Source of the DNA: Escherichia phage BananaBelafonte
Length of the DNA: 51,510 nt
Direction: 5' to 3' (one strand)
Sequence record: PP925845.1
In this document: positions 34,361 through 36,910 of the stretch, one piece after another
Layout of the letters: every line of letters starts with the position of its first letter
Numbering within the stretch: position 1 is the first letter of the stretch
Program-made: the position numbers and the translations under genes
Notes under the pieces: model-generated
Seen by the model: the letters and a program-made list of their open reading frames with translations, nothing else
Database searches by the model: none
What the model was told of the DNA's origin: nothing

Positions 34361-36910
34361 TTATTTTGTTAAGTTGGCAACCGTTGCTTTGAGTTCCTCA
34401 ATCTCCGCACGCTGTGCATCAAGAAGATCTTTCATTTCTTTGAAAGCCTCAACATACAGCGCGGATAGTGCGTTGTAGTCGAGCGATAGCGGATTTTCAA
34501 CTTCACGACAAGCCTTGTCGATCGTTCCGCCCGTCTCGCTAACGGTAACAGCTTCCGGCAGCACCTTTTGCACATCCTGAGCAATCACACCAGCGTTTCG
34601 CACAGTGTTTTGAATCGTCGTGTGCATTGAGTACGTAACCCCACGCAGGGAGCAAATCTTATCAAGAGCACCCGTTACAGGCTTGATCCAGAATTTCGCT
34701 CGCTCGTCTGACGTTGACGTGAATTTTACAGCGCTACATTCACCAGTGGAGCCATTAATGCCAAGCCCCTTACCAATTGCGCCTGTGCTCTCGTTATCAG
34801 GCCGGAGGTTTAGCACCTGGTTTGTTGAAATGTAAATCACCGCGCGAGTTTTGCCAGTGTTACCGCGAAGCCAGTAATGCGCGTTCTCATTTGCAACCCT
34901 CGCATTAACGAACATTGAGCCGCCAGCGGCATAAACGTTTGCACCTGAAGTTATGTTTCCTAACGCCCTGAAATCCTTCCCTCCCACAAGGTTTTCTGTG
35001 TCGTTCATTTCGAAATAACCACCAGTTTTGTAGTTGTGGAATCGCGTCATGTTGCTTCCGTTACTAGGGCGACCAACATAGAACAAGCTAGTCGAATCAC
35101 TGTTAACACCAAGCAGATAACTAGCTTCCATGCTATTCTTTGGGAATATCCTGAGCGAATCACCAGTGTAGTTAAATACACCCTTACCAGCGAAATCACC
35201 GTGACCGCCAACAGTCAAACCACTAAGGCCGGAAAGTTTGCCATCCTGATCAAACCCAAGATACTTGTTTCCGCCATTAACACCACGAATATGGAATGTC
35301 ATGTACGCTTTGCCGTCACCTCTGATCTCACTGTAAACCCTGTAATAGTGTCGCAGCGCTCCAGCGCCCGAAATGCACCGACCTGTTAAAATTCCGCTAG
35401 CGGCGGTTGCCGCATCACTAGCCTTGTCTAACGTTACATTTCCAAAGTCAGCGTCAGCGCCAAACCTTGCCATCTTTTGCCAGCCGATCCAGCTTTCACC
35501 ATCAGCCGACCCTCTCGCGTAAATATCGCCAGTCGTCGGATCGATTTGCATTTGAGCCGTAGCATTCACGCGACGCATTACAAGCCCAGGCCAATAAGCA
35601 TTTTGATAGTTAACACCAGAAGCACCAGCACCAGCAAAGAATCCGTTGAATTTGATCGCGTTAGCGTCGTTATTTGCGATCACGCCCGTAGTGGTTAATC
35701 CGGTTGCGGATCTGCTAGGAACGTCCAGGTTTTCACGAGCGCCAGCGGCATCAGTTGCACCAGTACCGCCAGCACCTACACCAAGAGGAATATATTTTCC
35801 GGCGTTGTAGTCATGGAATCCCCAATACGTGGACGACAGCACAAGACGCTTTTTAGGATCTGGCGAATCAATGAGCGTTTCTACAGCGGTTTGGCTGATT
35901 CGGTCAACGCCGAGGTTTTTACGACCTTCAGCCTTGTTCACCACGTCTGACAGGTTCGCATCTTTTCGCATCAGTTGCGTAGCGTCAAGTTGCTTTGCCA
36001 GGTCAGCGGCGCGATCCGCTTCCGTCTTTGCGCGATCCGCTTGTTGCGTCGAAATGGTTGCTTTCTCGCCAGCAGTCTTTGCGCTATTTGCTGAATTGGT
36101 TTCGCTCGTTTTAGCAGCGCTCGCAGAAGCGGCGGCGGCGTTCTTGCTGGTTCCGGCGTTTGCTTCACTCACGCTTGCGGCCTGTGCTTTTTCGGTTGCA
36201 GTTTTCGCGCTATTCGCTGAATTCGTCTCGCTCGTTTTTGCAGCGCCAGCGGAAGCGGCAGCAGCATCTTTGTTTGCGGCTGATTTCGTTTCGCTATCTT
36301 TCGCAGCGGCAGCAGAGGCGGCAGCAGCGTCTTTGTTAGCGGCTGAATTTGTCTCGCTTGACTTTGCAGCAGCAGCAGAAGCGGCAGCAGCATCTTTGTT
36401 TGAGGCTGAATTCGTCTCGCTTGTCTTTGCGGCAGCGGCAGAAGCGGCGGCAGCGTCTTTGTTGGCGGCTGAATTCGTCTCGCTGGTTTTAGCGTTGCGC
36501 TCGCTCGCAGCAGCGGCGGCTGCGTTCTGCTTAACCTCTTTTGCTACAGTGTCCAAGCGCTCAAAATCGAAATCCTTGATAATTTCAATGAATTTTTCGA
36601 ATTGGGTTTCTTTGCCCTGGTAGTAACGCAGCGTTTCAGCAACATCTTGCGCCAGCCCGTCAACGGTCAAAGAGTCATGCAGCAGGATCACATAATCGCC
36701 ACGAGGCACGACAGCGCCGCCAGTAGAGATTGCACGAATATTTGTATCGTTGATTACTTCGCTGATAGTAGCGAATGAGATCGGGTTAGTCGCAAACACG
36801 ATTGTTGCACCGGATCGGATCAGGCTTAATTGCGTGCGCCATTCCGTGCCGTAGCCAGTTACATAGCCTTGCGCGTCCATTGACGCTTGACCTTTGCGAT
36901 AAATAGCCAT
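34361..36910 (-). CDS. tail fiber protein with Ala-rich tandem repeats and C-terminal intramolecular-chaperone-like domain
   Basis: ATG (rc) at 36910 after AGGAG; about six 21-aa repeats (KDAAAASAAAAKTSETNSAAN); C-terminus resembles the auto-cleaving chaperone domain of fibers and spikes; terminators on both sides. Confidence 0.7.
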   Translation of the reverse strand: MAIYRKGQASMDAQGYVTGYGTEWRTQLSLIRSGATIVFATNPISFATISEVINDTNIRAISTGGAVVPRGDYVILLHDSLTVDGLAQDVAETLRYYQGKETQFEKFIEIIKDFDFERLDTVAKEVKQNAAAAAASERNAKTSETNSAANKDAAAASAAAAKTSETNSASNKDAAAASAAAAKSSETNSAANKDAAAASAAAAKDSETKSAANKDAAAASAGAAKTSETNSANSAKTATEKAQAASVSEANAGTSKNAAAASASAAKTSETNSANSAKTAGEKATISTQQADRAKTEADRAADLAKQLDATQLMRKDANLSDVVNKAEGRKNLGVDRISQTAVETLIDSPDPKKRLVLSSTYWGFHDYNAGKYIPLGVGAGGTGATDAAGARENLDVPSRSATGLTTTGVIANNDANAIKFNGFFAGAGASGVNYQNAYWPGLVMRRVNATAQMQIDPTTGDIYARGSADGESWIGWQKMARFGADADFGNVTLDKASDAATAASGILTGRCISGAGALRHYYRVYSEIRGDGKAYMTFHIRGVNGGNKYLGFDQDGKLSGLSGLTVGGHGDFAGKGVFNYTGDSLRIFPKNSMEASYLLGVNSDSTSLFYVGRPSNGSNMTRFHNYKTGGYFEMNDTENLVGGKDFRALGNITSGANVYAAGGSMFVNARVANENAHYWLRGNTGKTRAVIYISTNQVLNLRPDNESTGAIGKGLGINGSTGECSAVKFTSTSDERAKFWIKPVTGALDKICSLRGVTYSMHTTIQNTVRNAGVIAQDVQKVLPEAVTVSETGGTIDKACREVENPLSLDYNALSALYVEAFKEMKDLLDAQRAEIEELKATVANLTK
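36040..36500 (-). repeat. tandem 63-bp coding repeats (Ala-rich 21-aa units) inside tail fiber gene
   Basis: Translation shows about six consecutive units KDAAAASAAAAKTSETNSAAN with minor variation; boundaries approximate. Confidence 0.6.

Follow-up and report, generated by a model that had tools for sequence, protein, structure and literature searches.

A probable lateral tail fibre of Escherichia phage BananaBelafonte with a predicted tandem-repeat coiled-coil shaft and an exchangeable tip

Introduction

What kind of protein is encoded by a long, repeat-bearing gene that lies apart from the tail module of its phage, and how variable in length do the repeats render it? Both questions are raised by the locus at positions 34361-36910 (minus strand) of sequence record PP925845.1, Escherichia phage BananaBelafonte, the complete 51,510 nucleotides of which are called the window hereafter. 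A preliminary description, made from the sequence alone, had read the gene as a long tail fibre with Ala-rich tandem repeats, assumed to be a hotspot of slippage, and with a chaperone-like C-terminus. The analysis presented here indicates with high confidence that the product is a lateral (side) tail fibre of the Drexlerviridae, composed of an N-terminal anchor, a predicted coiled-coil shaft, an exchangeable receptor-binding tip and a probably self-cleaving S74 chaperone.

Results

Genomic setting and identity of the gene

By sequence comparison the window is a T1-like siphovirus of the family Drexlerviridae. Positions 20000-44000 matched Klebsiella phage vB_KM5a1-KLB26 (KLB26 in the following) with 94% identity over 88% of the stretch, and hundreds of other Drexlerviridae more weakly; the window and KLB26 are syntenic. 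The tail module is situated on the plus strand (19361-28181) and includes the genes for the tape measure (19361-22042) and a J-like tip protein (24609-28181). It is followed in both genomes by exonuclease VIII, recombinase and single-stranded DNA-binding protein (SSB) genes on the plus strand, then by four small genes, the fibre, primase and regulator genes on the minus strand, and finally by a helicase gene on the plus strand. The fibre gene is hence flanked by primase (36998-37957, minus) and by a gene with a Gly-rich product (33500-34204, minus), on the strand opposite to the tail module. This setting had been described beforehand as isolated, which is accurate as to position; it is, however, a trait of the family and not a peculiarity of this genome, because the lateral-fibre locus of Drexlerviridae was reported to lie between the recombination genes and the primase/helicase genes (Maffei et al.; PMC8594841, S1C Fig), which is the interval occupied here between exonuclease VIII, recombinase and SSB on one side and primase/helicase on the other. 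The same study found only the 5' end of the lateral-fibre gene to be conserved across Drexlerviridae (PMC8594841). Assignment to the tail fibres, as proposed earlier, agrees with the PHROGs tail-fibre families (best E=3e-126), with the annotation of relatives, such as 'tail fiber' for the KLB26 orthologue, and with the homologues; the gene comprises 849 codons plus stop (34361-36910, minus).

N-terminal anchor

Residues 1-112 (36575-36910, minus) were delimited by phmmer, conservation and AlphaFold2 as a putative virion-attachment or anchor domain, consisting of a beta domain (aa 1-77) and short helices. The anchor matched the N-termini of the Klebsiella phage depolymerase chains 7LZJ, 7VYV and 7VZ3 (phmmer E=1e-47), and with 7LZJ/7VYV the match extended over the N-terminal 167 residues of the fibre (E about 1e-47). 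Dozens of residues within aa 1-115 were invariant in 63 homologues; all 120 listed homologues had E<=3.4e-105, and 117 of them carried an LRYYQ-type anchor motif. At the level of sequence, a conserved attachment domain as expected of a Drexlerviridae lateral tail fibre is accordingly present, and this family-wide domain would attach the fibre to the tail.

The 63-bp tandem repeat

Tandem Repeats Finder reported a period of 63 with 4.3 copies, 84% matches and a score of 371 at 36216-36485, the core of an array of five contiguous 63-bp units, each coding for 21 residues, at aa 129-233 (36212-36526, minus). The first unit (aa 129-149) is diverged, with 62-67% nucleotide identity to the other units, while the remaining four (aa 150-170, 171-191, 192-212 and 213-233) share 78-87% among themselves. 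An unrelated heptad block of 21 residues (aa 234-254) separates the array from a sixth copy at aa 255-275 (36086-36148, minus), which is 70-79% identical to the units of aa 150-233 and 62% to the first. The earlier estimate of about six units at roughly 36040-36500 was therefore fair, with five in a row and one more behind a single intervening block according to Tandem Repeats Finder and the unit alignment.

The region is rich in Ala (35% over aa 141-330) and Ser (14%), yet the repeat is not a by-product of composition, because identity at a lag of 63 amounted to 78% over 252 nucleotides and far exceeded what shuffling the codons of this Ala-rich stretch gave (38 +/- 3%, maximum 48% in 1000 shuffles). 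A periodicity of 21 residues is general in the family, and 44 of 113 shafts have their best lag there, but the window stands out with a lag-21 identity of 0.90 compared with a family median of 0.60; the most homogeneous shafts (0.83-0.94) were those of the window, KLB26 and two metagenomic relatives. Several of the 21-residue units have probably been amplified or homogenised recently into 63-bp DNA repeats in the lineage of the window.

Coiled-coil shaft

AlphaFold2, run with 63 aligned sequences, predicted one uninterrupted alpha-helix of 192 residues at aa 116-307 (35990-36565, minus), with block pLDDT values of 84-94 over aa 121-300. Each unit of 21 residues equals three heptads, and all repeats fall within this helix. 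When the segment is arranged in heptad columns, Ser occupies one position in 16 of 30 heptads, Ala or Ser the position four residues on in 25 of 30, and Ser and polar residues recur with a periodicity of 3.5 residues. This heptad pattern is, judged by sequence, that of a coiled coil with small core residues, and it is combined with a long uninterrupted helix in what is a monomer prediction. A weak phmmer match (E=3.7e-5) relates aa 124-309 to aa 48-235 of DT57C LtfA (8HQZ), the solved structure of which shows a three-helix coiled coil from residue 40 onwards (PMC10713586). For DpK2 (7LZJ) of RAD2, itself a phage of the Drexlerviridae, cryo-EM displayed an N-terminal 'extended triple helical bundle', which was not modelled there (PMC8552709). 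We conclude that the repeats probably represent three-heptad units of a trimeric coiled-coil shaft, the trimer being deduced from DpK2 and LtfA. In the presumed homotrimer, aa 116-307 would form a three-helix shaft of about 29 nm with Ala/Ser-core heptads, to which one unit would contribute about 3.1 nm at 1.5 A per residue.

Repeat number and shaft length

The fibre of KLB26 is homologous over aa 1-335 (93.5% nucleotide identity), and its shaft contains exactly one additional unit of 21 residues. Units 4 and 5 of KLB26 are neighbours with 62 of 63 bases in common, and each of them matches the single unit aa 192-212 of the window. One unit has thus been gained or lost in the window/KLB26 lineage; because it is the window that has the modal shaft length of the family, the simplest reading is that KLB26 has recently duplicated a unit.

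Shaft length was taken as the distance from the LRYYQ anchor motif to the NLSDV motif at the junction with the tip, and could be measured in 119 members of a set made up of 120 homologues, the window and KLB26, a sample biased towards the query. Exactly 225 residues were found in 70 of the 119 measured shafts, the window included, and the sequences of these shafts were highly dissimilar. Twenty-one of the 49 non-modal lengths differed from 225 by a multiple of seven, where about seven would be expected (binomial P 1e-6, a value that ignores the relatedness of the sequences), and 16 further lengths at -4 and -11 form a second register that is spaced by seven too. Units are therefore gained and lost, and the heptad register is kept in the process, although the overall length of the shaft looks constrained. 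Such a change of whole units, by replication slippage or unequal recombination, would alter the shaft by about 3 nm and keep the register.

Further near relatives were sought in large collections. Scans of IMG/VR and metagenomes with aa 1-345 yielded only distant fibres, none of which exceeded 68% identity in its best segment. Exact copies of the repeat-unit DNA were absent from IMG/VR, as were the fibre proteins of the window and KLB26 from a collection of 15 billion proteins. As no further near relatives were found, the case for copy-number variation is built on one close comparison together with the family-wide lengths. Length variation, as anticipated in the preliminary description, is thus borne out in so far as the number of units is not invariant, KLB26 having one 63-bp unit more; the term 'hotspot' has to be tempered to a weakly supported notion, with one event and the same length in 70 of 119 shafts. 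A human gut metagenome contig (UABQ01000051.1; 51,509 bases) codes for a fibre that shares the anchor domain but has a different tip and a much shorter shaft, its anchor and junction motifs being 113 residues apart, compared with 225 in the window.

Junction motif and exchangeable tip

A conserved junction motif, K..NLSDV....GRKNL, is located at aa 316-335 (35906-35965, minus); in 63 homologues K316, N319, L320, D322 and N332 were invariant and S321 and V323 at least 90% conserved. Homology to KLB26 ends just past this motif, at about 35904, and resumes at the stop codon, at about 34371, so that the non-homologous segment is 34372-35903 of the window, with flanks that are 95-96% identical. On sequence grounds this is a clean swap of tip plus chaperone (aa 336-849) between the window and KLB26. 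At the nucleotide level nothing among 50,697 phage records matched the cassette, with the exception of the chaperone region, of which 34398-34761 showed 81% DNA identity to E. coli phage IsaakIselin; when tips are exchanged, the chaperone-coding part may provide a conserved arm for recombination on the 3' side. At the protein level the best phage matches to the cassette, from Cronobacter phages CRES7/9, IsaakIselin and Enterobacter phages, reached 42-58% identity over 50-70%, and the best metagenomic proteins about 50-52%. The tip is an unsampled allele, to which nothing among the phage records and the homologues found is more than about 52% identical.

Downstream of the conserved junction, aa 336-733 (34712-35905, minus) would constitute the exchangeable, beta-rich region that binds the receptor. 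It includes a marginal match to gp37_trimer (PF20744) at aa 585-639 (34994-35158; 22.4 bits compared with a cut-off of 21.7, 54 of 95 profile positions), a family that is also precomputed for many of the homologues. The receptor is most likely the O-antigen or another surface glycan, because gp28 of CRES7/9, which combines a gp37-type trimerisation region with an ICA domain, has the O-antigen as receptor (PMC12090712), and because O-antigen binding was proposed for Drexlerviridae lateral fibres in the BASEL papers (PMC8594841, PMC11990801). Gp36 of Bas07 was described as a coiled coil followed by a T5-like tip and an intramolecular chaperone (IMC; PMC11990801).

C-terminal intramolecular chaperone

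The C-terminal aa 734-849 (34364-34711, minus), which end in a long helix, were assigned to the Peptidase_S74/ICA intramolecular chaperones. Pfam Peptidase_S74 (PF13884, 'chaperone of endosialidase') matched aa 734-789 over the whole profile (positions 1-58 of 58) and scored 50.9 bits at a cut-off of 22 (E=1.9e-13). The motif SDERAK (34694-34711, minus) holds the predicted catalytic dyad Ser734/Lys739 and the predicted cleavage site; across 58 aligned homologues, D735 was 100% conserved and S734 and K739 at least 90% (fragment numbering was used there, full-length position being fragment position + 336). The spacing Ser-x4-Lys equals that of the dyads S911/K916 of endoNF and S587/K592 of MyRF, the mutation of which abolishes cleavage (PMC8326128). 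The domain is located at the extreme C-terminus, behind a region predicted to be beta-rich, and the monomer model places a terminal helix at aa 812-848. All features expected of an S74 chaperone at the level of sequence are present, and the resemblance of the C-terminus to an auto-cleaving chaperone, noticed beforehand, is thereby substantiated by the Pfam match and the conserved dyad, with cleavage as a prediction. The domain would promote folding of the trimer, beginning at the C-terminus, and afterwards release itself by cleavage at Ser734, for which the Ser734/Lys739 dyad would be responsible. From a chain of 88.9 kDa, autocleavage at the predicted site Thr733/Ser734 would release a fragment of 12.8 kDa and leave a mature chain of 76.2 kDa.

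Gene boundaries and neighbouring genes

The reading frame of 849 residues begins with ATG at 36910, preceded at a distance of 8 nucleotides by a GGAG ribosome-binding site (36919-36922, minus), for which KLB26 has an annotation at the equivalent place. A longer TTG-started open reading frame of 878 residues, reaching 36997, was rejected as spurious: it overlaps a terminator hairpin and lacks a ribosome-binding site, and all homologues begin with MAIYR. Because of this common start and the hairpin crossed by the TTG extension, the shorter reading is the correct one, and the length of 849 residues given beforehand stands. A reading frame of 264 residues on the plus strand (35829-36623) is almost certainly not a gene, as it represents the antisense reading of the Ala-codon repeat (FAAAAEAAAAS... 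units).

Strong terminator-like hairpins flank the fibre gene on both sides. One, with seven pairs, six of them G-C, followed by TTTTTTT, lies in the interval between primase and fibre genes (36968-36985, minus), the other with its T-run 8 nucleotides past the fibre stop codon (34332-34353, minus), where it is conserved in KLB26. No sigma-70 promoter was detected by consensus scan between the upstream terminator and the ATG; an extended -10-like element, TGCTATTAT, was spotted by eye between the upstream hairpin and the ribosome-binding site and is a candidate. Together with the hairpins this element suggests a self-contained late transcription unit adjoining the primase gene.

The Gly-rich gene directly downstream of the fibre gene (33500-34204, minus) encodes 234 residues with a Gly-rich N-terminus and several Cys clusters, among them CCCE and, at the C-terminus, PTPPTPPTGCCG. 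Its product had no Pfam match but corresponded over its full length to PHROG 9288 (unknown function), and it is conserved in KLB26 under the label 'hypothetical protein'. Three more small genes on the minus strand follow it (phrogs 9157, 8329 and 7239, function unknown). A perfect hairpin with a 9-bp stem at 32318-32339, scoring as a terminator on both strands, is placed between the converging SSB gene (plus) and the small-gene/fibre operon (minus). In the tail module, the tape-measure reading frame (19361-22042, plus) codes for 893 residues, compared with 934 in KLB26 (11151-13955 of its record), and KLB26 gave no match to the initial ~900 bases of the query spanning 20000-44000; not only the fibres but also the tails of the two phages may therefore be of different length.

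Discussion

The one-unit difference between the window and KLB26 invites the assumption that the 63-bp array serves as an adaptive contingency locus, in which units are gained and lost frequently and tune the length of the fibre to the thickness of O-antigen or capsule, thereby tracking the host. It would fit such a role that the two phages, 94% identical, carry different receptor-binding cassettes, and that shaft lengths vary in heptad quanta throughout the family. However, the length of the window is shared by 70 of 119 homologues with many different tips, which argues for stabilising selection rather than tuning; moreover, a single event is documented, and at 78-87% identity the units are not near-identical, so that the rate of slippage should be modest. 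Frequent adaptive tuning is for these reasons improbable, though it deserves more weight than the two proposals considered below. Equally doubtful is a related proposal, namely that the shaft serves as a molecular ruler, held at 225 residues in widely divergent Drexlerviridae fibres and reset now and then in some lineages by cassettes of 21 residues, so that the additional unit of KLB26 would be a host-linked adjustment accompanying the swap of the tip.

Instead of a shaft, the Ala-rich segment might be a low-complexity, flexible or disordered linker, the repeats of which have no structural register. Its composition would suit a linker, and its similarity to structures of the Protein Data Bank (PDB) is possibly in part compositional, but the strict heptad pattern with its preferred Ser and Ala/Ser positions, a predicted helix with pLDDT above 90, length variation quantised by seven and the triple-helix bundles seen in the homologous DpK2 and LtfA make this a very remote prospect. 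Hardly more probable is a role as an enzymatic tailspike in place of a purely binding fibre, on the model of the depolymerase DpK2 or of the endosialidases, which likewise use S74 chaperones. The N-terminus is indeed homologous to that of a capsule depolymerase, and S74 domains were first described in endosialidases (PMC8326128); on the other hand, Pfam detects no catalytic family in the protein, be it beta-helix, pectate-lyase, sialidase or another, the C-terminal half resembles the tips of T7 gp17, R2 pyocin and Mu S fibres as well as gp37_trimer, and the nearest characterised relatives are fibres.

Some observations weigh against the lateral-fibre reading favoured here, or against parts of it. 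The class of receptor was assigned from relatives that are only 42-58% identical, and the Ala-rich region matches LtfA and T7 gp17 only weakly, a similarity that composition may have inflated. The AlphaFold2 monomer of the C-terminal part is of mediocre confidence (pLDDT 69, pTM 0.41); Foldseek with this model returned nothing at E<=0.001, and the T5 pb1 tip was listed by neither search. KLB26 is, finally, the only near relative in the collections searched, which limits what can be said of the frequency of unit gain and loss.

For practical purposes, the boundaries of the modules (anchor, shaft, junction, tip and chaperone) and the predicted Thr733/Ser734 site can serve annotation, host-range engineering and expression of the tip. 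A quantised and mostly fixed length of the shaft is a small point concerning the constraints on fibre geometry and leaves the current understanding unchanged.

Among known systems, Gp36 of JakobBernoulli (Bas07) and gp28 of CRES7/CRES9 are closest in plan, corresponding to the window in locus, anchor, coiled coil, tip and C-terminal IMC/ICA domain, although the tip of CRES7/9 is only 42% identical over 71% of the C-terminal part; in comparison with Drexlerviridae lateral fibres the 21-residue units of the window are unusually homogeneous. The KLB26 tail fiber (XDR03674.1) is like that of the window in aa 1-335, flanking genes and terminators, but has one more unit, an unrelated receptor-binding region and its own S74-type end with SDRELK. 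In T5 pb1/DT57C LtfA (8HQZ) a three-helix shaft of Ala/Ser heptads begins just after the attachment region, as predicted for the window, and T5-type L-shaped fibres likewise end in an S74 chaperone; the attachment differs, as LtfA threads into a ring of LtfC, and the T5/DT57C proteins are much larger or branched. With endoNF (3GW6) and the MyRF ICA domain (7DC3) the fibre shares Pfam S74, the Ser-x4-Lys dyad and a C-terminal helix expected to trimerise, whereas the passenger is a sialidase in endoNF, a transcription factor in MyRF and a fibre tip in the window, where cleavage is a prediction only. RAD2 DpK2 (7LZJ), homologous to aa 1-167 in its anchor and the start of its helical bundle, continues into a beta-helix depolymerase without S74, while in the window the homologous part is followed by a long shaft, a fibre tip and an S74 domain. 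The architecture as such has already been published for relatives; what the window appears to add is the allele of the tip, the insertion or deletion of a single unit relative to its nearest relative, and a shaft length that is mostly fixed and otherwise varies in heptad quanta.

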